From NCBI GenBank assembly GCA_028714095.1, contig JAQTMY010000001.1:277804-341803 (forward strand): DNA of 64,000 nt, in the 5' to 3' direction. The position numbers and the translations under genes are program-made. The notes under the pieces were generated by a model that did not search any database, was not told the origin of the DNA, and was given only the letters and a program-made list of their open reading frames with translations. Source of the DNA: Candidatus Nanoarchaeia archaeon. GTDB taxonomy: Archaea > Nanobdellota > Nanobdellia > SCGC-AAA011-G17 > JACPNG01. Below are positions 2,575-56,018 of this stretch, piece by piece; the first letter of the stretch is position 1; every line of letters begins with the position of its first letter.

Positions 2575-3663
2575 TTGATGAAAAGAGGTCAGATATCACA
2601 GGTCTTTATATACTTATTTGCTCTCCTTATTATTGTTTTTGTATTAATTTTTGGTTTTTCATTATTTTCCAAATCAAAACAATATGGTGAGTCTGTTGAT
2701 ATTCAGAATTTTGTTTCAACCCTGTCTTCCAAGATAGAATCATTAAATCAGCTTGAAGAGGGGTCTGAACAGACATTTTTATATTTATTGCCATCAACCA
2801 TAGATAAAATCTGCTTTGCAGACTCATCTGAATTGGACAAGACAGTTGATTCAGAATTAAATTTAATTTATTCCAAGGAAAAAAATCTTTATCTATTTCC
2901 AGGTCAGGCCTATAAGATAAATAGTTTATATCTTGATAAAAATCCATTGTGCATACAAAAAAATTCATTAAGCCTTAAGCTAACTAAAAATAAGGACGGA
3001 GTTTCTATCTCTTCAGAAGATTCTGTTGAAAAATGCAATACTCTTTTATTTAACAAAGAAGATAATATTGATATTTTATTTATTCCAGAATCTTATACAA
3101 ACATGGAGGCATTTTTGGAAGACTCAAAGGATTACATGGCAGTTTTATTGTCAAAAGAACCGTTAATCTCAAATAAGAAAGTATTTAATTTTTATTCATT
3201 GAATGAAATTCCAGAACTAAGTTGTACAAAAGATTATATTTTATTGTGTGATTTGCAAAAAATCCAAAAAGCAGCAATATCCTGCCCCCATGACATTATT
3301 GTTGTATTGTCAAAAAATGGAAAGTTATCTGGATTAAGATCCACCAGCCAGGGGAATATTATAATAATAAGTACAGGAGATAACAAATTAGTTATCAGCC
3401 ATGAGTTTGGTCATGCCTTTGCTAACCTTGCAGATGAATACCTAATAAAGGAGTTTAAGGGAAATCTCGAGAATGCTCCAAACTGTGATACCTCTCCATG
3501 CAAAAAATGGAATGGTAATGGGTGTTATGGGGGATGTTCCCTTGATAATTATTACAGGCCAAGCGCAGATTCAATCATGAAAAGCTTTGGCTTATTCTCA
3601 GATAATGAATTTAATCAGCCATCAAGAGAGGCATTTATAGAAAAGATGGGAGTTTACCAATGA
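2575..3663 (+). CDS. Pilin-like (class III) signal peptide protein with zincin metalloprotease domain (M64-like)
   Basis: N-terminus MMKRGQISQVFIYLFALLIIVF. Zinc motif HEFGHAFANLADEY at nt 3400-3441. Family assignment comes from motif memory only. Confidence 0.6.
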   Translation: MMKRGQISQVFIYLFALLIIVFVLIFGFSLFSKSKQYGESVDIQNFVSTLSSKIESLNQLEEGSEQTFLYLLPSTIDKICFADSSELDKTVDSELNLIYSKEKNLYLFPGQAYKINSLYLDKNPLCIQKNSLSLKLTKNKDGVSISSEDSVEKCNTLLFNKEDNIDILFIPESYTNMEAFLEDSKDYMAVLLSKEPLISNKKVFNFYSLNEIPELSCTKDYILLCDLQKIQKAAISCPHDIIVVLSKNGKLSGLRSTSQGNIIIISTGDNKLVISHEFGHAFANLADEYLIKEFKGNLENAPNCDTSPCKKWNGNGCYGGCSLDNYYRPSADSIMKSFGLFSDNEFNQPSREAFIEKMGVYQ

Positions 3664-4205
3664 AAAAAATATTTTATTTGTTAATAATAATCCTCTTAGC
3701 AGGTTTTGTCAGTTCATCAAGGGTTTATGTTCTTGACATGGAATATGATAAAGGGGAATTAAAGTTATTAAATCAGTTTTCTTTGTTTGGATTTGCCCCA
3801 GATTATAAGAATTCTGCAGGAGATTATTCCTTAACGTTCTATGATTCAAATGGAAATAAAATCAAGACAATAAGCTTGGATTTGCCTTTGATAAGGTATT
3901 CAGATGTTTCAACAGAAAAAGGAACAGAAGGCGATGTTGAATTCTTGGATAATGCTAAATTTTCTATAATATTGCCCTATCCTGAGAATGCTGCAGAAAT
4001 AAAAATAACTAAAGGCCCTCAGGAGTTGCTTAAAACAAAAGTTTCAGAATCCTCAGATAAAAAATCTCGATTTACCATCTGGATATTGGTTTTAATTATA
4101 ATCTTATTAATATTCCTATTGCTTACATTATTTATAAGAAAAAAGATTAAGTTTATATCTAACCAGCACCAACAATTACAACAATGGAACCAAAAAAGAC
4201 TTTGA
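3660..4205 (+). CDS. Secreted protein with C-terminal membrane anchor, unknown function
   Basis: ATGA overlap with the upstream gene. Sec-type signal MKKIFYLLIIILLAGFVSSS. C-terminal TM helix plus basic tail. Confidence 0.5.
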   Translation: MKKIFYLLIIILLAGFVSSSRVYVLDMEYDKGELKLLNQFSLFGFAPDYKNSAGDYSLTFYDSNGNKIKTISLDLPLIRYSDVSTEKGTEGDVEFLDNAKFSIILPYPENAAEIKITKGPQELLKTKVSESSDKKSRFTIWILVLIIILLIFLLLTLFIRKKIKFISNQHQQLQQWNQKRL

Positions 4206-4384
4206 AGCTTGTATTATTAATACCCTTAATAGCTGCAATAATTTATTTAGTTTATATTTTAATCCCAAAACCAATACCAGGAGGAATCCAGCCTGCCCCA
4301 ATATCAAAAACTTTAATATTTTCCACAGGTTCTTTTATTATTGGTTATGGATTATTTTTAGTTTTTATATATAAGAAAAAATAA
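4184..4384 (+). CDS. Small two-helix membrane protein (hypothetical)
   Basis: 66-aa hydrophobic ORF overlapping the previous gene end. ORF-level evidence only. Confidence 0.3.
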   Translation: MEPKKTLKLVLLIPLIAAIIYLVYILIPKPIPGGIQPAPISKTLIFSTGSFIIGYGLFLVFIYKKK

Positions 4385-4400
4385 AAAATTTAAGTTAGGA

Positions 4401-4757
4401 TTAACAAGCACCGCATTGATTATTGCATTGTCTTGCAGCTGCAGGATCCCCAGAATAACCACAAGAATATGTATAGGGATTAGTGCTTCTATCTATTCTA
4501 CAACAATATTTGCTACTTCCTCCACTACCTGTGTTTCTACTCCATATTCCACCCATAGCGTCACTTTGGGCAGCGAATAACGACCAGCTTTCTAACCAAC
4601 TTTTACTAAAAGCTTGCCCAACAACATTCCCTTCTCCATCAACCGTTCCAATAATCTCAGATTTAGATTGATAGAGCGTAGTAACTATAATTGCAACAAT
4701 AGCAACAACTCCAACAAGGATTAGGTAAGGTATTATCCCTTTTTTTGTTTTGCTCAT
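4401..4757 (-). CDS. Small signal-anchored Cys-rich protein
   Basis: N-terminal TM/signal anchor (IIPYLILVGVVAIVAIIV). Six Cys in the last 35 residues, ending ..QCNNQCGAC. GAGGTGAT SD 5 nt upstream of the ATG. Confidence 0.5.
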   Translation of the reverse strand: MSKTKKGIIPYLILVGVVAIVAIIVTTLYQSKSEIIGTVDGEGNVVGQAFSKSWLESWSLFAAQSDAMGGIWSRNTGSGGSSKYCCRIDRSTNPYTYSCGYSGDPAAARQCNNQCGAC

Positions 4758-4766
4758 ATAATCACC

Positions 4767-5762: not shown

Positions 5763-5763
5763 C

Positions 5764-6108: not shown

Positions 6109-6168
6109 TATTTATATAAAGGTTTCTATTTCTCAGTTTTCACTCATTATTTTTGTGAAAAAAACAGA

Positions 6169-8645: not shown

Positions 8646-9471
8646 ATTTATGATTATAAATATTAAACAAGAATAGGTCTGTCCATACTAATTTTAGGAT
8701 TCTGAAGAATGCATAAGACAATAATCCCAATACCATAAAGATTGCTCCAATTAACCCCTCGCTTCCTACAAATCCTATTCCATAGTTGATTCCAACCATA
8801 AATAAAATTAAGACTGTTTGGGTAATAAGTATCAAGATTAGGACAGCAAGAAGATATCCTGGTTTCTTAAAGAATGCCCTAGATGAGGTTATTAATGATT
8901 TTAATGTATTTTTCTTGTCCAGAAACAGGCAGGCGTATCTTAATAATAACATTAATTTAAGTAACAAAACAGCAACTATAATCAAGATCCCCATAATAAC
9001 TAGTGCAACGCCTTTTGGAATAGTATTAATCAATAGATATCCAATAAGCCAGGCTATAATCAAGAGTATCAACCCAATTAGGTAAACAAATATTCTTAGT
9101 AAAACAACTCTCCAGAATGCTTTCTCGTCTTCCTTGATTATTCTGAAAAGGTTTATTTTCCTTTTTTCAATAATGTTTCTTAGCATCTTAAATTTCAGAG
9201 CCATTAAGCCAGAGCCTATAAAAAAATTAACCAAGACAAACAAGATTAAATATGAAATTATCCTTAGCAAATTTTCCTGCAGGAATGAAAGCCCCCCCGC
9301 TTCAAAAAATGACTGGGCATCAAAGCTTGCTAATGATCCAAACTGGGAAAATCCACTTATTATCATAAAAAACAAGAATAATCCATAGGTAATTATTATG
9401 CTTATTAGATCAGGAATAAACAAAACTGGTTTAATTTGTTTCCAGGATTTAAAATACACCTCCTTAAACAT
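8635..9471 (-). CDS. Polytopic membrane protein, unknown function
   Basis: 278-aa hydrophobic ORF. TTTATAAA box at 9495-9502, 24-31 nt upstream. Confidence 0.45.
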   Translation of the reverse strand: MFKEVYFKSWKQIKPVLFIPDLISIIITYGLFLFFMIISGFSQFGSLASFDAQSFFEAGGLSFLQENLLRIISYLILFVLVNFFIGSGLMALKFKMLRNIIEKRKINLFRIIKEDEKAFWRVVLLRIFVYLIGLILLIIAWLIGYLLINTIPKGVALVIMGILIIVAVLLLKLMLLLRYACLFLDKKNTLKSLITSSRAFFKKPGYLLAVLILILITQTVLILFMVGINYGIGFVGSEGLIGAIFMVLGLLSYAFFRILKLVWTDLFLFNIYNHKFRH

Positions 9472-9596
9472 AAAGAATACAAAAGCTAAGGGATTTATAA
9501 AATTAGTGGAAAGAAATGTGCCTTATTTTACTGGAGAATCTGAATAGTAAAAAGAAAGGTTTTTATGTTCTAAACTTAATAATTTATTAAATCAAA

Positions 9597-10106
9597 ATGA
9601 AAGTGATATTATATATGGCTATAAGCGTGAATGGGATGATTGCTAAAAGTGATGATAACACCTCCTGGATAACCCCCGAAGAATGGAGGAGCTATAGTCT
9701 ATTTGTAAGAAAAGCAGGAAATCTTATTGTGGGACGCAGAACCTATGAAATTCTTACTAAACAACCAGAATTTGCAGAGTTTAAAGACATAAAACTTGTT
9801 GTAGTATCTAAAAAACAAGATATTAATCTTGTAAGTCGAAAACACTTAATCGCTGAATCCCCAAAAAAAGCATTAACTTTTCTTAAAAATTTTAAAAGAA
9901 TAGTTGTAGCTGGAGGAGGCACTCTAAATAACTCCTTCCTTGAAGAAAATCTTATTGATGAAATTTATTTGGATGTTGAACCAATTATAATAACCACAGG
10001 CATACCATTGTTTAAGGGTAAGGAATTTGTAAAAAATTTAAAGTTTATAAATCAACAAAAAATAAGTGAGAACGAAATTCAGTTACATTACACAATTGTA
10101 AAATAA
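9597..10106 (+). CDS. Dihydrofolate reductase-like / RibD C-terminal domain protein
   Basis: MKVILYMAISVNGMIA..IVGRRTYE..VAGGGTLNNSFL pattern of the RibD_C/DHFR-like fold. Confidence 0.6.
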   Translation: MKVILYMAISVNGMIAKSDDNTSWITPEEWRSYSLFVRKAGNLIVGRRTYEILTKQPEFAEFKDIKLVVVSKKQDINLVSRKHLIAESPKKALTFLKNFKRIVVAGGGTLNNSFLEENLIDEIYLDVEPIIITTGIPLFKGKEFVKNLKFINQQKISENEIQLHYTIVK

Positions 10107-10109
10107 AAA

Positions 10110-11021
10110 TTACTCTTTCTTCTTAATCTGGTCTTTAAGATTTAATTTATTAAGTAATTCCTTATACCTGTTTCTGATTGTAACTTCTGTAACACCTGCT
10201 GTATCAGCAACCTCTCTCTGTGTTTTTTTCTCATTGTTAATCAAAGCAGCAACATACAATGAAGCAGCAGCTATTCCGGTTGGACCTCTTCCAGAAGTCA
10301 ACTCAGAATTCTGGGCCATCTCTAAAATTTCAACAGCCTTACTCTGAGTATCTGCACTTAGTTTCAAAGCAGATGCAAATCTTGGGATATAATCAACAGG
10401 ATTGCTTGGAAGTATCCTTATTCCTAATTCTCTTGTTATAAATCTGTAAGTTCTTCCAACTTCTTTCTTGTCAATACCAGATGCTTCAGATATCTCATCT
10501 AAGGTTCTTGGAACTTCGTGTCTTCTGCATGCAGCATACAATGCTCCAGCAACAACAGACTCCATCGATCTTCCTCTAACTAGACCTCTCTGAACAGCTA
10601 AGGTATAAATTCTTGAAGCTTCCTCTTCAACAGATTTTGGTAATTTAAGATATGAAGCAACTCTTCTTAATTCAGCCAAAGCTAATTTTAAGTTTCTTTC
10701 AATTGCTGTACTAACTCTGTATTGCCATTTTCTTAATCTGAAGTATTTATTCTTGCCTTTCCCTTCTAACTTATAGATATCGCCTTTTTGTCCAACATCG
10801 GTTCCAATCCCTTTGTCAAACTTGGTATAGGTGATTGGAGCTCCTGTTCTTCTCATCTTGTCAGCCTGGTCATGGTCGAATTCTCTCCATTCCTGGCTGA
10901 AATCAATCATCTTTTCTTCTATAACTAGTCCGCAATCTTTGCAAATAACTTCTCCTTTTTCATGGTTAAGAATAAGATTAATTCCCCCGCATTCCGGGCA
11001 TTTTTTAATATAATGGGTCAT
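10110..11021 (-). CDS. tfb: Transcription initiation factor TFB (TFIIB)
   Basis: Zn ribbon CPECGG..CKDCG followed by cyclin-fold repeats. The ORF extends to 11081, but the TTTATAAA box at 11094-11101 is only 13 nt from that ATG. ATG at 11021 (MTHYIKKCPECG) is preferred. Confidence 0.9.
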   Translation of the reverse strand: MTHYIKKCPECGGINLILNHEKGEVICKDCGLVIEEKMIDFSQEWREFDHDQADKMRRTGAPITYTKFDKGIGTDVGQKGDIYKLEGKGKNKYFRLRKWQYRVSTAIERNLKLALAELRRVASYLKLPKSVEEEASRIYTLAVQRGLVRGRSMESVVAGALYAACRRHEVPRTLDEISEASGIDKKEVGRTYRFITRELGIRILPSNPVDYIPRFASALKLSADTQSKAVEILEMAQNSELTSGRGPTGIAAASLYVAALINNEKKTQREVADTAGVTEVTIRNRYKELLNKLNLKDQIKKKE

Positions 11022-11138
11022 GTTTATAAGTTCCCCTAATAACCACTTACGAATAATATCATCGTAAGGTTTATATATCATACCATAAGTTTATTTATAA
11101 ATCTTCCGGTTGGTTTTTCACTCAAAAAACAAGAGAAT

Positions 11139-11516
11139 TTACTGTAAAACTGCCTGTATCCCAACATCCTGACCAGGCCTGTTGGTTACTTTTGCTTTGC
11201 CTTTGTCAGTTTCTATGATAGTTCCTTTTGTAATAATATTTCTTCTTATGTAGTTCCTGTTTGCAGGATTGTCAACTACGCTTATTATTTTGGCTTTAAT
11301 ATGTTTTTTTGTTTTTGGATCATAAACATTTGCTATATCTTCAAACAAAGTTTTGAATTTTAGGTTTCCACCAAGAACTCTTACTTTTTTTATCCTTCTA
11401 TTTTCAATTTTTGTTAAAACTGGCAGGCTTCCTAACTCATTTAGTTTCTTTTTTCTCCAGGGCTTGTATTTTCCACCAGTAAGTTTAGTTTTTGCTTTTC
11501 TCTGTGAGATTGCCAT
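11139..11516 (-). CDS. rps8e: 30S ribosomal protein S8e
   Basis: MAISQRKAKTKLTGGKYKPWRKKK N-terminus; 125 aa. Confidence 0.9.
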   Translation of the reverse strand: MAISQRKAKTKLTGGKYKPWRKKKLNELGSLPVLTKIENRRIKKVRVLGGNLKFKTLFEDIANVYDPKTKKHIKAKIISVVDNPANRNYIRRNIITKGTIIETDKGKAKVTNRPGQDVGIQAVLQ

Positions 11517-11539
11517 AATCGTTTCTTAAAAATAGGCCA

Positions 11540-11547
11540 TTTATAAA
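11540..11547 (-). promoter_or_regulatory. TATA box TTTATAAA (rps8e)
   Basis: Lies 24-31 nt upstream of the ATG at 11516. Confidence 0.45.
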
Positions 11548-11572
11548 CCTTACTATTTGAATTTTAGAAAGG

Positions 11573-11580
11573 TTTAAATA
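11573..11580 (+). promoter_or_regulatory. TATA box TTTAAATA (LSm-L37e unit)
   Basis: Lies 26-33 nt upstream of the ATG at 11606. Confidence 0.45.
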
Positions 11581-11605
11581 CTGCCTTCTTACTTTAAAAC
11601 TTAAA

Positions 11606-11830
11606 ATGGAATCAGACAGACCTTTAGATGCATTGAATCAATCACGTGGCAGAAGAGTCATGATTGAGCTTAAGAACCAGAAACAGTTTATTGGAAAACT
11701 TAAAGCATTCGACATTCATATTAATGTGGTTCTAGAAGACACAGACGAACTTGAAAACGGTGAAGTCAAGAGAAAATTAGGTACAGTATTCTTAAGGGGA
11801 GATACCATAATTTTAATTTCTCCACAGTAG
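11606..11830 (+). CDS. Sm-like (LSm/SmAP) RNA-binding protein
   Basis: Sm1/Sm2 pattern [42 protein letters not shown]. Confidence 0.85.
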
Positions 11831-11834
11831 GAAG

Positions 11835-11999
11835 ATGGTAAAAGGAACACATTCTATGGGTAAGAAATCTGGTAAAAAGAACTTTATCAGATGCAGAAGA
11901 TGCGGAAAGAAAACCTATCACATTAAAAAGAAAAAGTGTTCAAGCTGTGGTTTTGGAAAATCAGCTAAGCTGAGAAAGTATTCTTGGCAGAAAAAATAA
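11835..11999 (+). CDS. rpl37e: 50S ribosomal protein L37e
   Basis: 54-aa ORF not in the supplied track, translated by hand: [55 protein letters not shown]4 zinc ribbon. The LSm-L37e pair is conserved in archaea. Confidence 0.85.
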
Positions 12000-12061
12000 G
12001 ATTTATATAGTATTCTTGACTGACTATAATTAAATTATGTTAGTAAAAAGAGGGAAAAGTA

Positions 12062-13249
12062 ATGGCTAGACTATCTGAATTATTGACTAAAGAACAAGTT
12101 AAAAAAATAAAAAACCGTTATGACTTTGCTGAAGAGGTTGCTGAAGCCCGTATTTCTTTTGAGAGTAAAACAAGCGCTTTAATGGAAGAACTTATGAGAC
12201 TAGGTGCAAGGGATTTGGATGCATTCCATTATGGAGGGAGGACCGTAGCGGGGTGGAGAGATCAAATAAGTGACTTAAATAATGAACTTATTACCCTCTA
12301 TGAGCGACTTGAGCGGGAGCGTAATAGACACGTTATAAAATCCTTAAATGATTCTATAAAAGAGTCTCAGAATAGAATAAAGGTCTATCAAGGAGATATT
12401 GTAAAAGCTCTTGCAATTGGATTTCATAGTTTATCTGCCGGGGATGTAAGAGAGGAATCTGAAAGAGAAAGAAGAATAAAACCTTATAGACAAAATATTG
12501 AAGATATTGTAAAGTATGCTGAAACAAAAAGGGAATTTGGAGAAAGAAAATTATTCAAGCATTATGCAACATCTAAAAGAACAAAAGAACTTATGTCTGG
12601 AGGCATGAGTTATGATGATGCTGTAAAAACCCTTAAAGAGGAAATTGATCAGGATACTGAAGGAAAATACAAAGGAAAAGGGTTCTGGTATTATGTTAAA
12701 ACTGCTGAAGAATTTATTAAGGGTGCGAGACATCCGATAAGAAATATTAAAGGAAGAGCAAGAGAAAAAGGTTACCTTAGAACAAGACCCCAGCACGTTG
12801 ATATTGAATCTGAAAAAGAAGCTTATAATGCTTTTAAAGAAGGGGGGGTTTCTGAAAGAGTTCTAAAATATCAAAAAGATATTATTGAATTAGAGTCTTT
12901 AAGAAAAGGATTAGCTCATAAACATCGTGCAGGAAATTCTTCTTCTGATTATCATAACCTTAATGAAGGACTTGGAAAAACTCTTAATTATGTAGGGAAA
13001 GAGCAAAAAAAAGAACTTGATGAATATTTAAAAAAGAAAAGACATAGTCTTGAAGAAAAAGTTGCAGCAGCAGCTTTATTCTGGATTGCTGGAATAATTG
13101 CTTTGGCAAGGGCAAAAGGAACTTCAATTACTGGAGGCTTTGCCATTTCAAACCAGTATTATGTTAATCCAAATAATATTTTATTTGTGGTAGGATTCTT
13201 ATGTTTGATTATTGGAACAGCAGTTTATCTGCATCATAAAAAAGAATAA
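12062..13249 (+). CDS. Coiled-coil protein with C-terminal membrane anchor, unknown function
   Basis: 395-aa charged helical ORF ending in two hydrophobic helices (AALFWIAGIIALA.., ILFVVGFLCLIIGTAVYL). Confidence 0.45.
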   Translation: MARLSELLTKEQVKKIKNRYDFAEEVAEARISFESKTSALMEELMRLGARDLDAFHYGGRTVAGWRDQISDLNNELITLYERLERERNRHVIKSLNDSIKESQNRIKVYQGDIVKALAIGFHSLSAGDVREESERERRIKPYRQNIEDIVKYAETKREFGERKLFKHYATSKRTKELMSGGMSYDDAVKTLKEEIDQDTEGKYKGKGFWYYVKTAEEFIKGARHPIRNIKGRAREKGYLRTRPQHVDIESEKEAYNAFKEGGVSERVLKYQKDIIELESLRKGLAHKHRAGNSSSDYHNLNEGLGKTLNYVGKEQKKELDEYLKKKRHSLEEKVAAAALFWIAGIIALARAKGTSITGGFAISNQYYVNPNNILFVVGFLCLIIGTAVYLHHKKE

Positions 13250-13254
13250 GAACC

Positions 13255-13262
13255 TTTATAAA
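13255..13262 (+). promoter_or_regulatory. TATA box TTTATAAA (tRNA-Leu)
   Basis: Lies 26-33 nt upstream of tRNA position 1. Confidence 0.4.
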
Positions 13263-13287
13263 ATAACTAATTCTGAATTTCCCTTAT

Positions 13288-13371
13288 GCGGACGTGCCGG
13301 AGCGGTCAAACGGAACGGGTTTAGGCCCCGTTGGCTTAGTGCCTACGCAGGTTCGAACCCTGTCGTCCGCA
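13288..13371 (+). tRNA. tRNA-Leu(UAG)
   Basis: Hand fold: acceptor GCGGACG/CGTCCGC, anticodon stem ACGGG/CCCGT, loop TTTAGGC, long variable arm, T-loop TTCGAAC, discriminator A. Confidence 0.85.
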
Positions 13372-13377
13372 GAACTT

Positions 13378-16300
13378 TTATTTAACACCTAAACTCATTA
13401 AATCCTCATCACAGAAATCTGTTTTCCTTGGATAATCTGTTTTTTTATAACCTTCAATAACCCCGCAAGTAGTTTTTACAAATCCACCCATGAGAAGATT
13501 CTTGTTTAATTTAAACGTTTTCACAAAAAGATTTGAATTTATTTTAATAGTTGATTCTTCGGATAAGCAAGCTGCAAGTTGCGCAGAAGTTGATTGCCCA
13601 ATCCCGACAATATTTTTACAATTATCTGGAATTACTGTTGCCCATAACTCATCAGTCTCACATCCATCAGTCGTTTTTATTATCAGGTAGAATCTTGCTA
13701 GATCTTCATCATTGGAATCTGTTTCTAGATTATCTCTATCTAATTCTCCAATTTTTTGTTTACCCGCTTTATCTCTTGCCCAGTAAGTTTCTGTAATCTG
13801 GCAGGCTTTCTCCATAACTAGTGTTATATCTTTATCATCTTCTTCTGGGTAATTAAGAAGACTTACCCTTAACCTATAGTCCTCTCCGTATTTAATATTT
13901 GAAGGCAAAGGTATCTCGATTTTATGGCTATCCCATTTAATTTGTGTATTTATATTTTTAATAATTGTACCCATTTTTCTATCAATGAGACTAACACCAA
14001 CTCTCATTCCTTCTACGTCTCCATCTGGTTTGCATCCCCCTGATTCAATCTCTGCCCATAAATTATTCTCTAAAAGTTTGGTTACTCCGGTTGCAGTACT
14101 TAATTTCGGTTGAGCTCCTTTGATAATATACTGCTTATATTCTTTTTCATCGTCGAGAATATTAATTCCTTCTAGTTCACATTTAGTGCTGGCTTCCACA
14201 TTCTTAGAATATTCCCCATTTTTCTGCTGGACTCCATTTACTTCCCCATAGGTTTTTACGGTAACTTTAATATCATCTGCCTTGCTATTTTTATATTTTC
14301 CTTTCTCATCATTTATAACCATGGTATACTGTTTATTATTCCCTTGGTTTGCAACAAGGGTTTGTCCAAACACCTCTAGTTTTGTACTGCTAATCTGAAT
14401 ATCACTTATTTGCTCATCAAAACCATCTTTTTGGGAGCTTACTCTAAATACAATTCTGTTTATTCCTAATGAAAGTGCATCTTTTTCCAAAACTAGTTGA
14501 GCAACTTTTTCTCCTTTAATAATATTATCCAAAATATAAAGTCCAGGTTCTTTTGTTACAGCTGCGGGCGCTTGAGGAGTACCCTCTGCACCCCCCTTAA
14601 TTTCAGCATTTATTTCAGCAGCTTTTTCTGATTCCTCTTTTTTAGAATGATCTCCTTCTGTAAGATAATCTTCTTTAGCCAAACCAGCTTCTAGATAAAT
14701 TTCTCCAGCTCGTCCATAACCTTTAGATCTAAGATTTTGATCATTAACTCCAGCAAGTATTGTTTTAAGTTCTTCTATGGTTGTTGCAGCCTTAATTTCT
14801 TCTGTTTTCTTTTCTCTCTCTTCTTTACTTAAGATTATTCCTTTATTTATCAGATCTTCTTCATATTTATTTTGTGCCTCACTTAAGTATACAGAAACAT
14901 TCCCATAATTTTCTAAATCCTGCAAGCTAAAGCTTCTTGTATCCAGCCAGCAATATCCTAATGCAACTCCTGATGAATCTTTTCCGCAGCTCCCGACATT
15001 CCTCCAATAATCCTTGTTTGAATTTCCGTCAGGATCTTCTACAGAGCAAACCCTTACAATGCTATCCGTAGTGCTGCTGATCCCAATCGTTGATGCAATT
15101 GTTTCTCCAGTGCTTTCTTTTAGTTCAGGTATGCATTCTTCCTCACTGTTAATATTTTTAGTAACTTCTTCTGTAACAGCATTATCCTGCAACTGATTTA
15201 ATCCATAATCTGTTGTGACTCTCCCAAATCCGCATTCAGTCACTTCATTAAGCTCGATACATACCTCATTAAATCCTTCTCCTGCTACAATGTCAACGTT
15301 TTTAGTTATATATCCTCCATATTCTATCTGGTCTTTATTCTCGCTTGTACTTCCCTGATCCCCATATGTAACGAATAATTTTCTTCCTGTTTTGCTGTCT
15401 CTCAAATAAACTCTATACCCGATCTTATCTGATCCGGAAATATCCTGGGTAGTTCCTGCATAGATATGGAAGAACACATTGTAACTTAGAGTTCCAAATT
15501 TCTCACTGTAAGGTTTTGAACTCATTGTAGCAATAAACTGGGAAGGATCTCTTGGGTTTACAAGTTTAGTCATGAACTCTCCAAGGTTTGGAATTGATCC
15601 GCTTACAAATCCTTTGCAGAATTCCATTTTTATTTGCTCAAGTTTCTTTGCCTTGAATGAATTATCAACCAAATTTCCATACTCACTTGTAAAGAACTCA
15701 ACACTCTTTAATGCATTTTCATAGCTACTTGAGAACTGAAGATATTCCCCCCCGCCTTCGATGCTGCTTCCGCTGAAGACATTTCCATTGAATAAGTTCT
15801 GGACAAATTTAGCAGCGCCTCCAGCCTCTTTCCAGAAAACATCACAAACATAAATGCTCTGGATTTTGTCGCATATGCCAACACTCTTCCCCTCTTCCTT
15901 TTGTGTTGTTAAACAGTCTTTTCCTGACTGGAATATTGATCTTATATTCTTGAATCCAGCTAAAACTCCTGTTGCACAAACAGGCAATATATCTCCAGAT
16001 CCCTGTGGCAGTACTATTGATCCAATTATCCCAGATCTTACAACATCCTTGACATACCAGGTTCCTCCAGCATTAAATCTTGAAACAGGACATACTATAG
16101 GATCGCATATATTGAATAATGCCTTGCAGTCTGAAACACTCATAGAGTCTGTGCAATGTCCCAAGGCTTTGTTTGTATCCCTGTTTGCAGCATTATAACT
16201 GCACTCAAATACTTTTTTGTCAATTTTTACAGTCCCTTGATCATCACATTTAAATGAATCAACAAAACTTTTGTATTTATATAATTGAGCTGGTTCTACT

Positions 16301-19300
16301 TCCTTAAGATAGCTTGCTGACTCTTTCATTGATATATCATCCTTGGTGCATAATAACCCATCAGAACCAACATTCATTAGACTAATACTGGATGCACTCC
16401 CATCGGCTGCATATTTTAAAACCTTTAAGTAATTTCCGTCTTTGTAAGGGATGCAGTAGGGTTTTCCATCAGAGTAAAATTCTGCTTTTGCATTTGCAGC
16501 ATAGTCGCTCCTCTTCCCGCTTTCCTGCACAATATCAACTACCAAATAACATTCGCTATCTTTTTTAAATAACTGACCGCTCCCGATTATTTTCTTTGCG
16601 TCCTTAGAAATATCATCTTCGTTTATAGGAATTAATCCTTTTATTTCCTCAAATTTGACTGGATTTCCTTTTTCATCTTTTTTAAGAACATACCCTACAG
16701 CAGTCTTTTTATCCTTGCTCATTGTAACAGTGGATAAAATATTATTTATTTCAGCACATCCACCATTATTTTCTGTTAATCCTTTCCACTCTTTTTGTCT
16801 TTGTTCAATGCTCTTTGATTTTTGAAGTTCAAGATTTTGTATTGCAATCTTGTAAAGTTTTTCTTTTTCTGCTTTGTCCTCTATGTTGCTGTCCTTGAAT
16901 AATTTTTCAGTTTCTTTGTAAGCAGAATTTTTCTCTTCAAGGCTTTTGATTAAAGCTGTTTTCTCCTCTGCTATTGTTTTAAAGTATCCTTCCTCTTTCT
17001 TATCAAGCCCATCGGGTTTATTGTTGAGTATTGAACTTAAGATTAAATACTGCTTGACATCTTTTGAATCAACAATAAACTCTTTGCCATCTTTATTAAA
17101 ATCTTTTATTTCTTTTTCCAGTTCCTGATAGGCCAGACTCTCATATAATTTTCCGTCCTTAAGCTGGTCGTTAAAGTCATCAACTTTGGTATCAACCTCG
17201 TCAATTATTGATTCTGCAAATTCTCCAGTCTCCATTAAACATTCATCATAACTCTGATAAAATTCCCCAATTTTCCCTGCAGATTCTAAACTTACTTTTG
17301 TAATGCTGTTTGCCTGGCAGAAATCTTTCAGTCCCTGTATCTCTTCATACCCATTCATGACTATGCTTCTTGCATTTGCCTTGTTTCCTATCAAGAAATT
17401 CTTTGCTGTGATGAATGCAAATGTTGCTCCGCATCCAATCGTCCAGCCCTTTACAATATCCTCTGTTGTGTTTATTATTCCATCTAATGTTTTTATTGTG
17501 GAGTCAAGATTTCCTATATGATTGTCTAATTCTTCAGTTGTAAAATTAATTAATTTTATCCCTTTATCAATTGGAATTCTTACATTAAACTCGCTTGTAC
17601 TGTAAACCTTTGCTCTCCCAGGTATTATTGTTATCTGGGCAGCCTTTAATGATTCTACTTTTTTTAATTCAACCTCTATCTTCTTGCCGGTCTTTGAAGT
17701 TATTTCTTGTTTCTTTTCTATCTCTAATTTTATATTTTCCCCATCCGCTTCATCAGGGTATTTATGTTCCTTTAATTTTTCAGAATTTTTATTGTAATTG
17801 GAATCTTCATTAAGTTTGCTTGCAAGCAAATTTCTTACTGCAAGAACTCCTTCTACATAACTTGTGTCTGCAGTATCTCCACATCCTAATCCATTATAAG
17901 CTCTTAATGCCCTTTCCCATCCAGTATAACCTGCATATTGTTTTTGATATTCAGCATTTGCACAATAACTTTTTACCTTGCTCTCATAATTACTCCCTTC
18001 ATTATACTCGTCGTATTTTTTCTTTAAGAATTCAATCCCAATTCTTATGTTTTCATTAGGATCAAATCTTACATCAAGGTCTTTTGTCCCCTCTTCATCT
18101 TTAATCTCATCCAGCTCAGCTAATTGAGCAAGGACTTTTTCTTTAGTACCTTCATCTTTAATATTAAATGCACAGGTGCTTTCTTGATTCCCTAGGTCTT
18201 TATAGAGCTTAGCATTACTATCAACTTCTTTTACAGTTCCAGGCATAAGTTGCATTAATCCTATTGCCCCACAATATTCTTTGTTTAATTTTGAGATTAA
18301 GCTAGGATAAAATCCGCTCTCATAAATTATTAAAGCTTTAACCAATAAAGGATCTATATCTTTTTCTTTAGCATATTCTAAAATTTTTTCATCATACTTG
18401 TTTTGATAAGTTTCAGCTTGAACCCCAATCCTTTTGAGATCTCCACTCTTAGCATTGGTCTTGATATCCTCAATTTTCAATAGACCCGGTCCTTTTATTT
18501 CCTCACCCTTGGAGACAGTTACATCATCCTCATTAATGTCTATTATTTTATATCCAGTATTCTTTAATGCTTCATTAATCTTATAATCAGATGTATCATC
18601 TCCAACTCTAACGCTTGCAGATGCTCCCTGATGTTTTTTGATTTCCTTAACTTCAATGATTGCTTCTTCTGAACCAAGCTTTATATTTTCAGATGAAGAA
18701 CTTATTCCCGCAGAAGCCAAGGTCAGGTAGGTGCTGTATTTATCAAGATTGGTAGTATCCTTTATGTTTCCCAGCTCGTCTAAAATCCTGCTTCTGAATG
18801 AGTTGAAATCGCTGTCAGCGTTAGCTAGTTTAGCTTTAGTCATTAAGTCCGCATAAGCCTCAAGGATCTTGCCTGTATAAATATCATATTCTGAACTTGA
18901 TCCAGAGACTAACTCCCTTGCTTTTTTGAAATTAGTTACTGCTGCACAATCAAGCTTAAATGCAAAATCACTATTAATATCCACTTTCTCGTCTTCTATA
19001 TTCTTGCAGGGATCTTCAGTATTATAATTTGTTGTACTCTTGCTTATTTCCAAATTTATTGTTCCACTGTCCTTAAAGTTGGTTAATTTAACCTCACCAG
19101 AACCATCATCTTCTTTCTCAATTTTTTCAACATACCAGTCTGTCCCGGGTATGTAGTTTGATTCAAACACCTCTACAATATCTATTTCCTTATTTTTGTA
19201 AATCTGGAACGTTGCACTTTTGCTTAAGGAATTAACAATGCCATCTAATCTTACTTTTATTATATCAACTCCACTGCTCCCCAATAATCCGCTTATCCCG

Positions 19301-22136: not shown

Positions 22137-22324
22137 TTTAGAGCTATAACTAATTTCGAGCCTCCGAGTTTTTTTATTTTAATTAATTTTTTCTTCTGCA
22201 TGTCTTCTATTATATCTGTAACTGTGGCATTTTTTATATTAAAAAAAGCAGCAATCATGCTGAAGTTCACTAGATTATCTCTTTTTTTTACAAAGTCCAA
22301 TATCTCTGCTTCTGTTGGTATCAT
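22133..22324 (-). CDS. Small winged-helix-like DNA-binding protein
   Basis: 63 aa; pattern ILDFVKKRDNLVNFSMIAAFFNIKNATVTDIIEDMQKKKLIKIKKLGG. First gene of the unit, with an ATGA overlap to the next. Confidence 0.5.
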   Translation of the reverse strand: MIPTEAEILDFVKKRDNLVNFSMIAAFFNIKNATVTDIIEDMQKKKLIKIKKLGGSKLVIALK

Positions 22325-29137: not shown

Positions 29138-29194
29138 CCCCTTATATTAAGTATAAGAATTATATAAAAATATCTATCAAACCATAAATTAGGA

Positions 29195-29295
29195 TAGCCC
29201 CGCCAGGATTCGAACCTGGGTCTCCGGAGCCAAGGTCCGGAATGATTGGCCACTACATTCCGCAGAAATATTAAATGTATTTCTTCTACGGGGCT
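29195..29295 (-). tRNA. tRNA-Gln(UUG)-like with ~28-nt non-canonical intron in the D-arm region
   Basis: Hand fold: acceptor AGCCCCG/CGGGGCT, anticodon stem CCGGA/TCCGG, loop CCTTGGC, T-arm CCAGG-TTCGAAT-CCTGG. An extra segment after position ~9/10 contains the hairpin AGAAATA/TATTTCT. Confidence 0.6.
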
Positions 29296-34027: not shown

Positions 34028-34060
34028 TTTTTACCTTCACTTTTTATTTTGAGGTTTTCA

Positions 34061-36067: not shown

Positions 36068-36104
36068 TTTAGATACTCCTTTCAATAGAGAGAAATGGTT
36101 TTCT

Positions 36105-51747: not shown

Positions 51748-51943
51748 ATCTATTATTAAGAAATTATTTGATAAACCAACAAAAAACAAAATTAAGAAAG
51801 CTGCAAAAATCACAGTTAGAGAGGCAAAGATCGTTGCCCCTAAAGCAAAAAAAGAAGTTGAAAAGATTTATCATTTTGGAAAGGATCATGCAAAAAAAAT
51901 AATCATAGAGATCAACAAAGAACCAGGGAAAAAGAAGAGATGA
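51731..51943 (+). CDS. Small Lys-rich protein (hypothetical)
   Basis: ORF overlapping the ends of both neighbours; composition-only evidence. Confidence 0.3.
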   Translation: MKKQIKSIIKKLFDKPTKNKIKKAAKITVREAKIVAPKAKKEVEKIYHFGKDHAKKIIIEINKEPGKKKR

Positions 51944-52794
51944 TGATTTTTTGGATACTAACCTTAATAGGATTAATCGGATTAGTTCTAGCTTCTTATT
52001 TTGATATTAAAACAAAGGAAGTCCCAAATATCATCAGTTTTTCAATGATTGCTCTTGGGTTAGGATTAAGATTGATTTATTCAATAATAACAAAGAATGA
52101 AATGTTTTTTAGGAACTCTTTGTTGATAGTTTCGGTATTTTTTATACTTGGCGGGATTTTGTATGTGTATAAAAAATGGGGGGGAGCAGACACAAAAATT
52201 CTTATGGCCCTGGGGGCTTTATTTTACCCATGGTCAACTCCTTACTTTTTAGTCTCATTTTTAATAATCTTTTTATTGGTTGCTTCTGTTTATGGTTTTA
52301 TCTGGGCAGCATATGTTTCAATAAAGCATAAGGAAGAATTCAAGAAAACTTTTGTTATAATATATAAAAAGAAAAAAACCCAGACAATAATATTATTTTT
52401 TGTTTTTCTGCTGCTTTTTGTTATTTCTCTGATCGTATCTGATATTTCCTTAAGGTTTGTTTTGATGTTGCTTGCAATCCTGTCATTGCTTTATCACTAT
52501 TTGTGGATATTTACCAAGGCTGTTGAAAAGTCCTGCATGGAAAAAACAGTTCCTGTTTCAAAACTTGTAGAAGGAGATTGGATTATTGGAGAAATTAAAA
52601 AAGGAAATAAAGTATTATATCCTAAAGATTTGCCACTTATCACAAAAAACCATATTAGTTTATTCAAGAAGTATGGAATTAAGGAAGTAAGAATAAGGGA
52701 GGGATTTGCTTTTATCCCGGTTTTCCTTATCACATTGGTAATAACTCTTTTCTTTGATAAGGTGTTCTTAACTTATGTAACTACCTTATTGTAG
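51940..52794 (+). CDS. A24-family prepilin/preflagellin peptidase (PibD/FlaK/EppA-like)
   Basis: Two catalytic Asp motifs in TM context: ASYFDIKTKEVPN and KKWGGADTKILMALG. C-terminal extension of about 90 aa. Confidence 0.75.
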   Translation: MMIFWILTLIGLIGLVLASYFDIKTKEVPNIISFSMIALGLGLRLIYSIITKNEMFFRNSLLIVSVFFILGGILYVYKKWGGADTKILMALGALFYPWSTPYFLVSFLIIFLLVASVYGFIWAAYVSIKHKEEFKKTFVIIYKKKKTQTIILFFVFLLLFVISLIVSDISLRFVLMLLAILSLLYHYLWIFTKAVEKSCMEKTVPVSKLVEGDWIIGEIKKGNKVLYPKDLPLITKNHISLFKKYGIKEVRIREGFAFIPVFLITLVITLFFDKVFLTYVTTLL

Positions 52795-52799
52795 TAAAG

Positions 52800-52807
52800 T
52801 TTATAAA
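52800..52807 (+). promoter_or_regulatory. TATA box TTTATAAA
   Basis: Lies 28-35 nt upstream of the ATG at 52835. Confidence 0.4.
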
Positions 52808-52834
52808 TAAGCCTCCTTACCCTCCTTGATCAAA

Positions 52835-53530
52835 ATGGATAAATTAAGACAACTGAGTCTGATAGCAATAATTACTGTAATTGGGGCAAAAAGCCCAAAT
52901 CTAGACTTAAATATATTAAAAAAATCAATAATTGAAGAAGCAAAATCTTGTTATGAGTTTCAGGTTGATCCCTCTCAATTTAACTATTCTGATTATATTG
53001 CTAAGATCAAAGGGAATGAGTCAATCCAAAAAGAGTTTGATATTAAAAATCTAAGTCAACTAGAGCAAAAATTCCTTGAAAAAAATATTTTATTTACTAG
53101 ATCCAGAAGCCCCCAGCTTAGATCATATGAAACAACAACAGTGCAGGATCCTATAACTTATTTCCTAGGCAAAATCGAAAGAGAAGATAGATTAATTATT
53201 AATACAAAAAAAGGAGAAATTTACTTTTATTTAATTTCTAATCCAGATGAATTAAACTTTGTTAAACATCCCTCCTTTGATAAAGATAAATATCATAAAG
53301 AAATCCAAATTTATTTTTGTAACCCAATCATCAAATCATTTTTTAGTCATGCAGATATGATCAATCCTGCCATGTGTGTTGATTCAACATTTATTTATTT
53401 TGATTTAGAAGATTTAAGAGGAAGAAATTTTTCCAACGTGCTTAAACGTGAAGTTATAAGGACAGTATACAAAGATTTCAAGATGTCAAGCCAAGATACA
53501 GAAGCTTTAGTACAAAAAATAGAGTTTTGA
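52835..53530 (+). CDS. Hypothetical protein
   Basis: ORF only. ATG at 52835 is preferred over the TTG at 52826 because of the TATA spacing. Confidence 0.4.
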   Translation: MDKLRQLSLIAIITVIGAKSPNLDLNILKKSIIEEAKSCYEFQVDPSQFNYSDYIAKIKGNESIQKEFDIKNLSQLEQKFLEKNILFTRSRSPQLRSYETTTVQDPITYFLGKIEREDRLIINTKKGEIYFYLISNPDELNFVKHPSFDKDKYHKEIQIYFCNPIIKSFFSHADMINPAMCVDSTFIYFDLEDLRGRNFSNVLKREVIRTVYKDFKMSSQDTEALVQKIEF

Positions 53531-53532
53531 TT

Positions 53533-55335
53533 TTATTTACAATCTCTTCTATATTTACAAAGGAATCCAGGGTTATTTTTTGGGTCTGGATGGCAATTCA
53601 GATTAAGAACTACCACATCGCATTCATAATTTCTAGCTGAAAATTCTTTTTTACGTTTGGTATCACAGCAAATTACCTCATCCTGAGACTTTTTGACTGC
53701 AGCAGGTTCTGCTGTAGTAGTTTGTACAGGTATGGAGTAACTCTTTGAAATTCTTTTTTTATCACATTTAGGGGGGTAGTCTGTACATTCATAAGTACTA
53801 TCAATAAGACACTCACAATACAAATTCTGCATCCTTGATTCCAGAGCAGTACGATAAACTGAAGATTTCTCTTTCCCCCATTCTTTATAAATTTCACTTA
53901 AACTCTTACAGGATGGATTTTTATTTTCTGCAAGGTTTTTGGGATCAACTAAGTAACTAGTTACATAGGGATTAAACAAACACCAACTATTAACTAATTT
54001 ATTATTAAACAACAAATTAGTACATAACCCTCCTGTTGCTCCCCCTGTTATATCTGATACCATCTCTCCAGAAATCTTATTAGTTCCGGTAGTGCATTTA
54101 CTAAATCCGTTTTCATTTGCAGTCAAATAATACCCGTCGTTTGTATACTTCATAGAAAAACATGGATTATTTACTTTTCCAGGTTCATTCATGTCTAAAA
54201 GAAATTGTCCATTGTCCATTGTCAATCCATAATCTTTTCCTTCGCATTTTTTCTCAAATTTCAAAGATTGACCTTTAAATTCGTAAGCAGGAATACCAGC
54301 ACTAGTTCCTAACTCCAAGAAATAAGAATCTGCTTCGCATTCTTTGTTGTTTAAACACAAAAGCTGGTCTTTTTTAAGTTTTAATGTTGGGCCCTTGCCG
54401 TCCTCTAAAATAATATTGCAGTCTCTTCCATAACAAACAATATTTCTCTTTTCCTCCTTCTTGACATTGATGATTGGATTTTGTTTTGCTTTCTCACAAT
54501 TTAATGAAACATCAGACAGAAAATTATAGCTGACCTCACACCCGGCAGGAACAGTGTTTAAATAAACATCAAATATCGGGGAAGGAATTATTAGACTATA
54601 GGTATCTTTTCCAATTCTTAGATAAATATCCTTAAGGTCTAATCTTTTAATATCTTTATCATTTACTATTTCAAATTCAAATGTACTCCCAGAAGCAAGA
54701 TTATAGAATTTGTATTCTTTGTTGTTAATCCTGAAATTAACTTTACTAGTACTCTTTACAGCATTAAGCTCAATTATTTTTTTATTATCCTTATCTGTAT
54801 AATAATCAAACTCAACTTCGTTAAGCAATGTAAATGCTTCTTTATTCCCATCTAATCCTAAAAATATATTTAAATTTTTAAGGTTCTCCTGGTTTTCTCC
54901 CTTGTATTCTGCATTCTTGGTTTTACATCCAGTTATCTTTGTAATCTGTAAATCCTTTATGCTTTTCTTTTCCTTGTCTACATCCATTGAGAATAATATG
55001 TTACAATATCCTTCTCTTGTGTCTATATCCTTTACAACATTCCCTGTTGCTGGCTGGTTAGTTTTACTTGATTCAAATAATTCCGTTGCTATTGCTTTAA
55101 CCTCTCCAATTCTACTTGCTGATTCTTTGTCTAACAAGCTTACAATTGAAATTGTTCCTGTTATCACATCACCTGTAACAATTGTTTCAGCTAATCCAAA
55201 ATAACTTGCCATTTGCTGGAAATCCTCTCCAGCTAATCCTGATTGCCCAACCATAAATAAACCCTTTACTATTTCAGCATGAGCAATACCAAGACTAAGC
55301 AAAATTACAATTCCTAAAACAATTATTTTTTTCAT
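53533..55335 (-). CDS. Secreted Cys-rich protein (600 aa), unknown function
   Basis: Sec signal MKKIIVLGIVILLSLGIAHA, many Cys in the C-terminal half, ATGA overlap with the upstream pilin-like gene. Confidence 0.55.
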   Translation of the reverse strand: MKKIIVLGIVILLSLGIAHAEIVKGLFMVGQSGLAGEDFQQMASYFGLAETIVTGDVITGTISIVSLLDKESASRIGEVKAIATELFESSKTNQPATGNVVKDIDTREGYCNILFSMDVDKEKKSIKDLQITKITGCKTKNAEYKGENQENLKNLNIFLGLDGNKEAFTLLNEVEFDYYTDKDNKKIIELNAVKSTSKVNFRINNKEYKFYNLASGSTFEFEIVNDKDIKRLDLKDIYLRIGKDTYSLIIPSPIFDVYLNTVPAGCEVSYNFLSDVSLNCEKAKQNPIINVKKEEKRNIVCYGRDCNIILEDGKGPTLKLKKDQLLCLNNKECEADSYFLELGTSAGIPAYEFKGQSLKFEKKCEGKDYGLTMDNGQFLLDMNEPGKVNNPCFSMKYTNDGYYLTANENGFSKCTTGTNKISGEMVSDITGGATGGLCTNLLFNNKLVNSWCLFNPYVTSYLVDPKNLAENKNPSCKSLSEIYKEWGKEKSSVYRTALESRMQNLYCECLIDSTYECTDYPPKCDKKRISKSYSIPVQTTTAEPAAVKKSQDEVICCDTKRKKEFSARNYECDVVVLNLNCHPDPKNNPGFLCKYRRDCK

Positions 55336-56018
55336 ATTGCAAATACAAACTTCAAGCTCTCCATATCATACATAAATGAATCATCATAAATTATTATCAA
55401 AGTATTTTTATCTAATTCAGCTACCTCAACCCTTAAATCTTTTTGCGTTGCAGAATCTATAATACAACTTATACAGAATTCTGGTTTTTTGCTTTCTTCA
55501 GATATTATTTTTCCTAAGTTATACATCTCATAGACTCTTGCATCAAACTCTGCAAGATATTCTTCATCTATTTCATAGGTTTTATCATCTTTAATTACCT
55601 TTAATGGATATCTAAAGTTTACATTTACCTTATCATCAATTGTAAATTCTGCTGCTGGATTTCCTCTTTCAACTTCATATCCAGTCAAATCAACACAATA
55701 ATCAATATTATATTCTACATATTTGTTTAGACTTTCTTCTATTTCTTTGATTGTAGTATAATCTTTAAGGTAAGCAAATCCTTCCACGTTGTTTTTTATG
55801 TCAGGATACTGACCTCCATAGAATAAAACTTCATATAAAGCATCATTTCCAATCATTTCTAAACAATTTTGTATATTTTCAGGAATTTGATTAAATTCTT
55901 CAGGAGTTTTAGTTATTTCTTTTTGGATTTGACCTTTGAAAATCAATAATAAACCAACAATAACAACTATGATAATTCCAATAATAATAAATAAAGTTAC
56001 CTGGCCTCTTTTACTCAT
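55332..56018 (-). CDS. Pilin-like (class III signal peptide) protein
   Basis: MSKRGQVTLFIIIGIIIVVIVGLLLIF. Paralogous to the N-terminal part of ORF 20223-22136 (EIE..L..YV..N.D.C motif region). Confidence 0.6.
   Translation of the reverse strand: MSKRGQVTLFIIIGIIIVVIVGLLLIFKGQIQKEITKTPEEFNQIPENIQNCLEMIGNDALYEVLFYGGQYPDIKNNVEGFAYLKDYTTIKEIEESLNKYVEYNIDYCVDLTGYEVERGNPAAEFTIDDKVNVNFRYPLKVIKDDKTYEIDEEYLAEFDARVYEMYNLGKIISEESKKPEFCISCIIDSATQKDLRVEVAELDKNTLIIIYDDSFMYDMESLKFVFAI

Follow-up and report, generated by a model that had tools for sequence, protein, structure and literature searches.

Class III signal genes and their exported neighbours in a 64-kb region of a Candidatus Nanoarchaeia genome: a predicted adaptor-plus-cargo module

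Genes with class III-type N-termini and the peptidase gene

The window analysed here, i.e. the whole 64,000-nt stretch from positions 277,804 to 341,803 of contig JAQTMY010000001.1 (about 32% GC), comes from a DPANN archaeon of the Woesearchaeota/Pacearchaeota-type "Nanoarchaeia". It encodes the archaeal housekeeping proteins TFB, SRP54, FtsY, RadA, Pelota, eIF2-alpha and ribosomal proteins, together with five tRNAs, and the nearest relatives of its proteins are annotated as "Candidatus Nanoarchaeia", Pacearchaeota or Woesearchaeota. We describe five of its genes, whose products begin with a pilin-like class III signal, and the genes for exported proteins that directly follow four of them. Two of the resulting pairs (B and D) appear, from comparative sequence analysis, to be instances of a genuine and very widespread DPANN module, in which a conserved adaptor gene precedes the gene of a variable cargo protein.

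The four pairs are A1 (2575/2578-3663, + strand) and A2 (3660-4205, +), B1 (20223-22136, -) and B2 (13378-20226, -), C1 (46610-47896/47908, -) and C2 (45682-46608, -), and D1 (55332-56018, -) and D2 (53533-55335, -). A1, B1 and D1 carry class III signals and C1 a class III-like one; A2, B2 and D2 have Sec signals, and C2 has the lipobox LVGC. The start of the second gene overlaps the end of the first by ATGA in pairs A, B and D, and C1 and C2 are separated by a 1-nt spacer. The fifth gene, E (30744-31232, +), also with a class III signal, is solitary. All ten open reading frames (ORFs) named in the first-pass annotation, their strands, N-termini and junctions, and the solitary position of E were confirmed. 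When all six frames of the window were scanned by rule for start-proximal [KR]G with a hydrophobic stretch after it, the only hits were these five genes and, weakly, a sixth (4401-4757).

About 9 of the 70 window ORFs are Sec- or lipobox-like, and the presence of such a gene directly downstream of four of the five class III genes has a binomial probability of about 1e-3 within the window. In 16 of the 47 co-directional gene pairs of the window the gap is at most 5 nt; with genes so often closely packed in this genome, the start/stop overlap by itself is not special. GGAG-type Shine-Dalgarno motifs are located 7-15 nt 5' of A2, B2 and C2, within the preceding gene, and the first genes of the pairs have none, which is the usual archaeal operon pattern.

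It had been suggested that the four pairs are copies of one recurring module, with first proteins belonging to two paralogue families. The two relationships are real, B1 and D1 forming family A, with a shared adaptor domain of roughly 220 aa, and A1 and E family B, but C1 represents a third family unrelated to either. The four downstream proteins A2, B2, C2 and D2 share no significant BLAST similarity with one another, nor does D-type cargo with B2, and a common origin was rejected in both cases. Rather than four copies of one module, the window contains one family in pairs B and D, with pairs A and C as separate operons.

The class III character of the N-termini was judged by conservation across homologues. 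In each of the five window proteins, a brief leader with positive charge ends in [KR][GAS], and some 20 hydrophobic residues come directly after it. The pattern [KR][GAS]Q plus hydrophobic stretch is present in 202 of 219 representatives of the B1 family (92%), with position -1 occupied by G (86%), A (9%) or S (5%), a modal leader of 5 aa, and a mature end reading Q-[VI]-T-x-F-I-I-x-G-I, in which T at +3, F at +5 and G at +9 are conserved at 88%, 79% and 94%, respectively. The -1 and +1 residues are kept although overall identity drops to about 25%. The C1 family has [KR][GA]↓Q (arrow, cleavage site) in about 15 of 17 loci, with the N-terminus [KR][GA]↓Q..AA.LVA.I..LI..YILF.PP; the C1 homologues of the window and of the related locus L005 have A or E at +1, not Q. 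The family B sites are KRG↓QI, KKS↓QY and KA↓QI. EppA sites have been defined experimentally in the pilins of Methanococcus maripaludis as KG↓QV, KG↓QI, KG↓QL and RA↓QI, the +1 Gln being required (PMC4371748). Conservation of G/A/S at -1 and Gln at +1 among homologues of about 25% identity bears out the earlier reading of these N-termini as class III-type signals, and the sites of the window families are of the same form as those of Methanococcus, as the proposed EppA-like character of the +1 Gln implies. Three unrelated protein families of the window thus appear to be made with an EppA-type class III signal, and we infer, with good support, that these proteins undergo class III processing.

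A gene for an A24 (FlaK/PibD/EppA-type) class III signal peptidase is located in the window itself (51940-52794, +). Its product (284 aa; Pfam Peptidase_A24, PF01478, 5.8e-10) contains both catalytic Asp motifs (D22 and GGAD83) and matches the NCBIfam model of FlaK at 8e-15, under the family cut-off. The gene is syntenic with C1 and the Pelota gene in four related loci (L003, L004, L005 and L026). The peptidase is a candidate processing enzyme, which probably cleaves off the leader of 3-10 residues.

Two further ORFs have N-termini of related appearance. The weak sixth candidate of the scan (4401-4757, -; 118 aa), with the N-terminus MSKTKKG↓IIPYLILVGVV, lies beside a gene for a SpoIIM-like membrane protein and is conserved in a close relative (L001, 7800-8189); it could be a genuine small pilin, and its membership in the system described here is uncertain. 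A 174-aa ORF (60844-61368, -), which could be assigned to no family, begins MKRG↓LVLILLFILITPTVIAP, which can be read either as a Sec signal or as class III-like, in the latter case with Leu at +1.

The adaptor-plus-cargo module of pairs B and D

B1 (637 aa, N-terminus MKRG↓QVSLFVIIGIII) consists of the signal, an adaptor N-domain at about residues 44-230 and beta-sandwich domains. Its AlphaFold2 model (pLDDT 84.6) has a helix at residues 4-34, a disordered linker at 33-43 and an alpha/beta domain followed by the beta-sandwiches. A word-indexed search retrieved 77 full-length homologues, and a search with a profile that includes the N-domain retrieved 8,538 clusters at E <= 1e-3 and 1,635 at E <= 1e-30 (representative clusters at 50% identity). 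D1 (228 aa, N-terminus MSKRG↓QVTLFIIIGIII) contains only the class III signal and a B1-type N-domain, matching the hidden Markov model (HMM) of the B1 family at 1.7e-27 over HMM positions 1-223, with EIE..L..Y...N.D.C in the alignment. The word-indexed search with D1 gave one relative only, and more were found by profile search and by a metagenome motif scan.

For the comparison of loci, a family A module was defined by two features: an adaptor with KRG↓QVTxFIIxGI and a conserved Cys-GGY-Cys N-domain, and a co-directional gene for an anchorless signal-peptide protein no more than about 100 nt downstream; B1/B2 and D1/D2 both have this arrangement. The metagenome scan, seeded with the adaptor motif alone, yielded 80 loci, in which 41 of 60 complete adaptor genes encode fewer than 300 aa. 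As called by a heuristic signal-peptide classifier, not SignalP, a signal-peptide-like N-terminus is encoded by 49 of the 54 downstream genes that could be evaluated, compared with 63 of 246 other ORFs of these loci (26%) and 17 of 64 upstream neighbours (odds ratio 28, Fisher p = 2e-19), and two of the five called negatives look signal-peptide-like by eye. The commonest spacing between adaptor and cargo genes is -4 nt (20 of 51 pairs). For family A, the adjacency first seen in the window is strongly enriched in these loci.

The cargo proteins themselves are diverse. Sixty-nine of them, 18 from the window and earlier loci and the rest from the metagenome scan, fall into 33 clusters unrelated by BLAST, of which 9 have at least two members (one of these being B2-like) and 24 are singletons. 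The few Pfam matches are to Ig-like, FN3-like and PG_binding_1 domains. No C-terminal transmembrane (TM) helix was found in the cargo proteins, and a shared C-terminal docking motif or anchor was considered and rejected, none being visible in about 35 C-termini. Since the pairing is non-random and the cargo is both interchangeable and anchorless, the suggestion that the first protein tethers or displays its exported partner, rather than building a classical pilus, gains support for the B1/D1 family; it does not extend to pairs A and C (see below). The adaptor family was not met with in literature searches covering DPANN, class III signals, pilins and transglycosylases, and the adaptor-plus-cargo module is apparently undescribed, so far as these searches reach.

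The cargo of pair B is of known type. B2 (2282 aa) has a Sec signal and an SLT lytic-transglycosylase domain (Pfam SLT, 1.1e-14), and its signal peptide is the only hydrophobic segment, with no membrane anchor. Giant extracellular murein-lytic-transglycosylase (SLT/GH23) proteins of more than 1,500 aa (fam00969), restricted to Pacearchaeota and Woesearchaeota, have been described as possible host-contact enzymes (Castelle et al. 2021, PMC8204110). By its size, signal peptide and SLT domain B2 belongs to these giant SLT proteins, the assignment to fam00969 being based on the described features and not on a fam00969 HMM. Orthologues of B2 are located 3' of B1 homologues, usually with a 4-nt overlap, in five related loci (L030, L031, L032, L038 and L039); they measure 2279 aa in L031, 2273 aa in L039 and more than 1615 aa in L038, that of L030 is partial, and that of L032 is split into proteins of 1777 and 1019 aa, with SLT and Peptidase_M15_4 domains. 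Searches of PDB sequences with B2, D2, family A and A2 profiles gave nothing useful.

Upstream of B1, a small ORF (22133-22324, -; 63 aa) with weak matches to winged-helix-type NCBIfam models, here called the winged helix-turn-helix (wHTH) ORF, overlaps the B1 start with its stop (ATGA) and is probably the first gene of operon B. The wHTH is a separate gene also in L030 (9819-10004), and in one clade (proteins P0034, P0035, P0036, P0040, P0041, P0044 and P0061) it is fused in-frame before the KRG↓Q site. Such fused forms appear as a "leader" of 68-69 aa in 8 of the 219 B1-family representatives; in them, a cut by the prepilin peptidase would free a cytoplasmic DNA-binding domain.

In another relative, L037, two family A adaptors (740 and 732 aa) occur within 11 kb (9001-20223), each followed by large signal-peptide proteins, of 422 and 1225 aa after one adaptor and of more than 1300 aa after the other. 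This arrangement is a tandem duplication of the adaptor-plus-Sec module.

Pair D lies in a short segment next to the peptidase gene. D2 (600 aa, 24 Cys) has a Sec signal, which is its sole hydrophobic segment, no anchor and no known domain, and shows no BLAST similarity to other cargo proteins. The 3.3-kb segment 52795-56053, comprising D1, D2 and a 234-aa ORF without Pfam match (52826-53530, +), has no counterpart in L005, L003 and L026, at the site flanked there by the A24 peptidase and HIT genes. Because it is absent from these relatives, the segment is a lineage-specific islet, and the D module a lineage-specific gain beside the peptidase gene. The short adaptors of L004 and L033 likewise precede unrelated Sec proteins.

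Pairs A and C and protein E

A1 is composed of a class III signal, a family B pilin-like N-domain of about 150 aa, and an M64-like Zn-metallopeptidase domain. Its Pfam score for Peptidase_M64 (PF09471; 8.2e-14, 51.9 bits) is above the gathering cut-off of 26, it contains the zinc motif HEFGH, of the HExxH type, and it matches PDB entries 4df9 and 3p1v at about 1e-6; by these features it is predicted to be a peptidase of family M64. A2 has a Sec signal, a beta domain of about 110 aa and a C-terminal TM anchor. The pair, with its ATGA overlap, is present in five genomes (the window, L001, L002, L035 and L036). In seven homologues (P0011, P0012, P0015, P0016, P0017, P0019 and P0021) the A2 domain is fused C-terminally to the M64 peptidase (domain E-values 8e-9 to 1e-4). 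Because of these fusions (the Rosetta-stone argument), A1 and A2 are likely to associate physically, A2 being a putative accessory subunit of the A1 peptidase. The proposal that A2 is a detached M64_N domain (PF16217) found no support: Pfam gave no match, and in hhalign the probability against P0023 was 0.6%. The evidence from the fusions is independent of this result. A peptidase with an accessory domain explains pair A, for which the tether originally envisaged is not needed.

The related archaeal contig L002 has, four genes 3' of the A1/A2 pair (9072-9473, +), a gene for a lipoprotein signal peptidase of bacterial type (Peptidase_A8), which bears on the processing of lipobox proteins such as C2.

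The solitary protein E (162 aa, N-terminus MQKRG↓QISEVF) aligns end to end with the N-domain of A1, including the PS.I..ICF motif (blastp 4e-15). Its AlphaFold2 model, of low confidence (pLDDT 60), has a pilin-like topology, with a helix at residues 6-57 followed by beta strands, and a Foldseek search with this low-confidence model returned no matches. E is a candidate true pilin.

Pair C adjoins the Pelota gene, from which C1 (428 aa) is divergently oriented in about 20 of 27 related loci. C2 is a 308-aa LVGC lipoprotein, whose family occurs in one to three tandem copies in relatives. In most of the distant relatives, C1 is followed by a polytopic membrane protein of 560-900 aa without Pfam family and then by one to three C2-type lipoproteins. 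Only C1 and C2 are kept in the window and L005, and C1 alone in L003, L004 and L026; the polytopic protein was not found in the window with an HMM built from eight homologues. Pair C is a remnant of a larger conserved cluster, which speaks against its being a copy of a two-gene tether module. Examples of the cluster with the large protein include L025 (3824-10239), L018, L016, L021, L024 and others. The large polytopic protein of L018 contains a 3D domain (PF06725, 1.1e-5), which Pfam links to peptidoglycan-acting enzymes.

Two other features of the window may be mentioned. The GC content rises to 44% around 34-36 kb, against about 32% elsewhere, where the genes of a lipobox protein (674 aa, three PKD domains) and then of a 182-aa Sec protein are located (33479-36085, -); this segment may have been acquired horizontally. 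A tRNA-Gln (29192-29270, -; 79 nt by ARAGORN) matches the Rfam tRNA model only in part, at positions 6-65 with 33 bits, perhaps because it contains a small intron or is unusual in structure.

Proposed mechanism, alternatives and known systems

We consider it probable, on balance, that processed pilin-like adaptors hold their co-translated Sec partners non-covalently at the cell surface. The A24 peptidase would strip the leader from the class III proteins, and the conserved N-terminal hydrophobic helix would stay behind as a membrane anchor or filament-core segment; the product of the next gene in each tightly coupled operon would leave the cell through the usual Sec or lipoprotein pathway, and the two products would assemble outside. 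A family A adaptor would consist of the QVTxFIIxGI helix and an alpha/beta domain (about 200 aa) with a disulfide, and would present variable anchorless cargo. The wHTH-B1-B2 operon may be the ancestral, syntenic version, mounting a giant peptidoglycan-lytic SLT protein, and D1-D2 a short-adaptor version gained as the 3.3-kb islet by the peptidase gene. Pair A would be an M64-like zinc peptidase at the cell surface, whose beta-domain subunit has become a separate protein, and pair C a reduced form of the cluster of C1, polytopic membrane protein and lipoproteins. The model builds on the observed gene architecture, motif conservation, adjacency statistics, fusions and anchorless cargo, from which we infer cleavage by the peptidase, binding of cargo by adaptor, and placement in the membrane or in an Epd-like filament.

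Several observations weigh against this model: i) A2 and C2 have anchors of their own (a C-terminal TM helix and a lipobox, respectively) and so need no tether; ii) in L035, the peptidase of an A1-A2-type pair (P0013) has a plain TM anchor and no pilin-like N-terminus, so the partnership of A1 and A2 is independent of the class III signal; iii) no PilB/FlaI-type ATPase or TadC/FlaJ platform gene was detected in the window, nor in related loci adding up to about 1 Mb, by Pfam lists and a crude Walker-A scan, which covered the window and about 100 family A loci, and filament assembly is consequently without local support; iv) the B1 model shows a TM helix, a linker and a globular domain instead of a continuous pilin alpha-1 helix, and Foldseek matched it to no type IV pilin, giving weak Ig/CnaB-like matches only (TM-score about 0.1); v) no pilin model of Pfam or NCBIfam was matched above threshold, D1 giving only a sub-threshold match to Flp1_like; and vi) the signal-peptide calls behind the adjacency statistic are heuristic.

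Some of these observations bear equally on an alternative that we regard as unlikely, namely that the adaptors serve as minor pilins in a pilus of Epd-like type (type IV filament (TFF) system 1) encoded elsewhere in the genome, with the Sec proteins as tip adhesins or effectors, mounted as PilY1 is by bacterial minor pilins. They would then be genuine parts of a pilus and more than membrane-anchored tethers. A recent survey places Epd-like "system 1" TFF clusters in some DPANN (bioRxiv 10.64898/2026.04.22.720090), and archaeal type IV pilus loci often have minor pilins beside large secreted adhesins (PMC4858521). The EppA-type sites with +1 Gln agree with such a role, as do the mature helix QVTxFIIxGI, which is nearly invariant, beyond the constraint expected of a simple anchor, and the model of E, with a 52-residue N-terminal helix followed by beta strands. 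However, no assembly ATPase or platform gene is located near the roughly 100 family A loci, the B1 model matches no pilin fold, and the model of E is of low confidence and has no Foldseek match.

It is distinctly improbable that the N-termini are uncleaved signal anchors of type II membrane proteins, so that the pairs would be nothing but compact operons, in which surface proteins of no common mechanism happen to be neighbours, and the class III likeness superficial. The common tight spacing (16 of 47 co-directional pairs), the existence of three first-gene families and of four mutually unrelated second genes, the M64 homologues with plain anchors and the failure of all pilin models to match would fit this explanation. 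It is contradicted by the convergence of three unrelated families on [KR][GAS]↓Q at a fixed distance from the start, kept at 25% identity, and by the A24 peptidase encoded in the window; moreover, compaction fails to explain the family A adjacency (p = 2e-19) with variable anchorless cargo.

Type II secretion system (T2SS) pseudopilins act on Sec-exported substrates. By analogy, the class III proteins might be pseudopilin-like export or release factors, which help the cargo across or into the S-layer and then dissociate; although the cargo is Sec-exported, large and anchorless and the class III gene is always upstream and translationally coupled, this is very improbable. Genes for a secretion ATPase or platform are lacking in the neighbourhood; the globular domain of the adaptor is large, conserved and disulfide-containing (and B1 has extra beta-sandwiches typical of surface-exposed structural proteins); and a protein matched one-to-one with very different cargoes is more likely to bind them than to act as a piston for general use.

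The model of surface-held Sec partners can be taken further, to a version that is tentative and, as a whole, rather unlikely: a dedicated surface-display system of Woesearchaeota/Pacearchaeota-type DPANN, in which one pilin-derived adaptor domain, cut by an EppA-like peptidase and incorporated in a short Epd-like filament or pseudopilus, docks interchangeable anchorless effectors encoded by the next gene, the giant peptidoglycan-lytic protein among them; short-adaptor cassettes such as D1-D2 travel between genomes as islets and vary the specificity of host contact; and, in one clade, processing by the peptidase frees the fused wHTH as a transcription factor, so coupling export to expression.

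Much of archaeal diversity belongs to DPANN, the majority of which presumably live attached to hosts. For Pacearchaeota and Woesearchaeota, the published evidence pointing to bacterial hosts comes mainly from the giant lytic-transglycosylase proteins. To these proteins the present analysis adds a conserved class III partner that always accompanies them, whose N-domain represents a family of at least 8,500 clusters at 50% identity, paired with dozens of unrelated secreted proteins. It also offers a testable model for the retention and display of anchorless surface effectors, and a genomic rule for finding candidate host-interaction proteins: locate a KRG↓QVTxFIIxGI gene and take the next gene.

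The arrangement can be compared with five known systems. The closest are the Sulfolobus bindosome, treated last, and the bacterial pairing of PilY1 with minor pilins (fimU-pilVWXY1E), together with the pairs predicted in archaeal type IV pilus loci (Makarova et al. 2016, PMC4858521). In the pilus systems, a prepilin-signal gene likewise stands beside that of a large non-pilin Sec surface protein, which its product presumably mounts, and the cargo has adhesion or enzyme domains. Unlike either, the window pairs stand alone among housekeeping genes, away from ATPase and platform genes; one family A adaptor domain serves dozens of unrelated cargo families; and the adaptor, at 230-740 aa, has no detectable pilin fold.

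The Epd pilins of Methanococcus maripaludis and their peptidase EppA share with the window proteins the form of the cleavage site (KG↓QV, KG↓QI, RA↓QI) and the +1 Gln. The window proteins differ in having Phe (family A) or Val (family B) instead of Glu at +5, in giving no match to PF04021 (DUF361, with the motif QxSxExxxL) at E <= 0.1, and in being far larger; the window peptidase (284 aa) differs from EppA in matching FlaK/A24 models only, the NCBIfam model below its cut-off.

The fam00969 giant SLT proteins (PMC8204110) include B2 by its size, SLT domain and signal peptide, the orthologues of relatives measuring 1,600-2,280 aa. By text search, that paper mentions no pilins or pili, and hence no B1 partner, wHTH gene or short-adaptor modules. 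The M64 peptidases (IgA peptidase; Bacteroides 4df9 and 3p1v) share the catalytic domain and HEFGH motif of A1, whereas A1 has in addition an archaeal class III N-terminus and a pilin-like N-domain, and its accessory beta domain is a separate, membrane-anchored product.

In the Sulfolobus bindosome, whose substrate-binding proteins are processed by PibD (bioRxiv 10.64898/2026.04.22.720090; PMC4371748), class III signals are likewise found on functional extracellular proteins that do not form filaments, encoded outside TFF clusters and presumably processed by a single prepilin peptidase. The window proteins are not solute-binding and have no ABC transporter neighbours, and their payload is mostly a separate Sec polypeptide, the exception being A1 with its own M64 domain. 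The bindosome concept of class III signals on non-pilins would thereby be extended to a form in which adaptor and cargo are two polypeptides.

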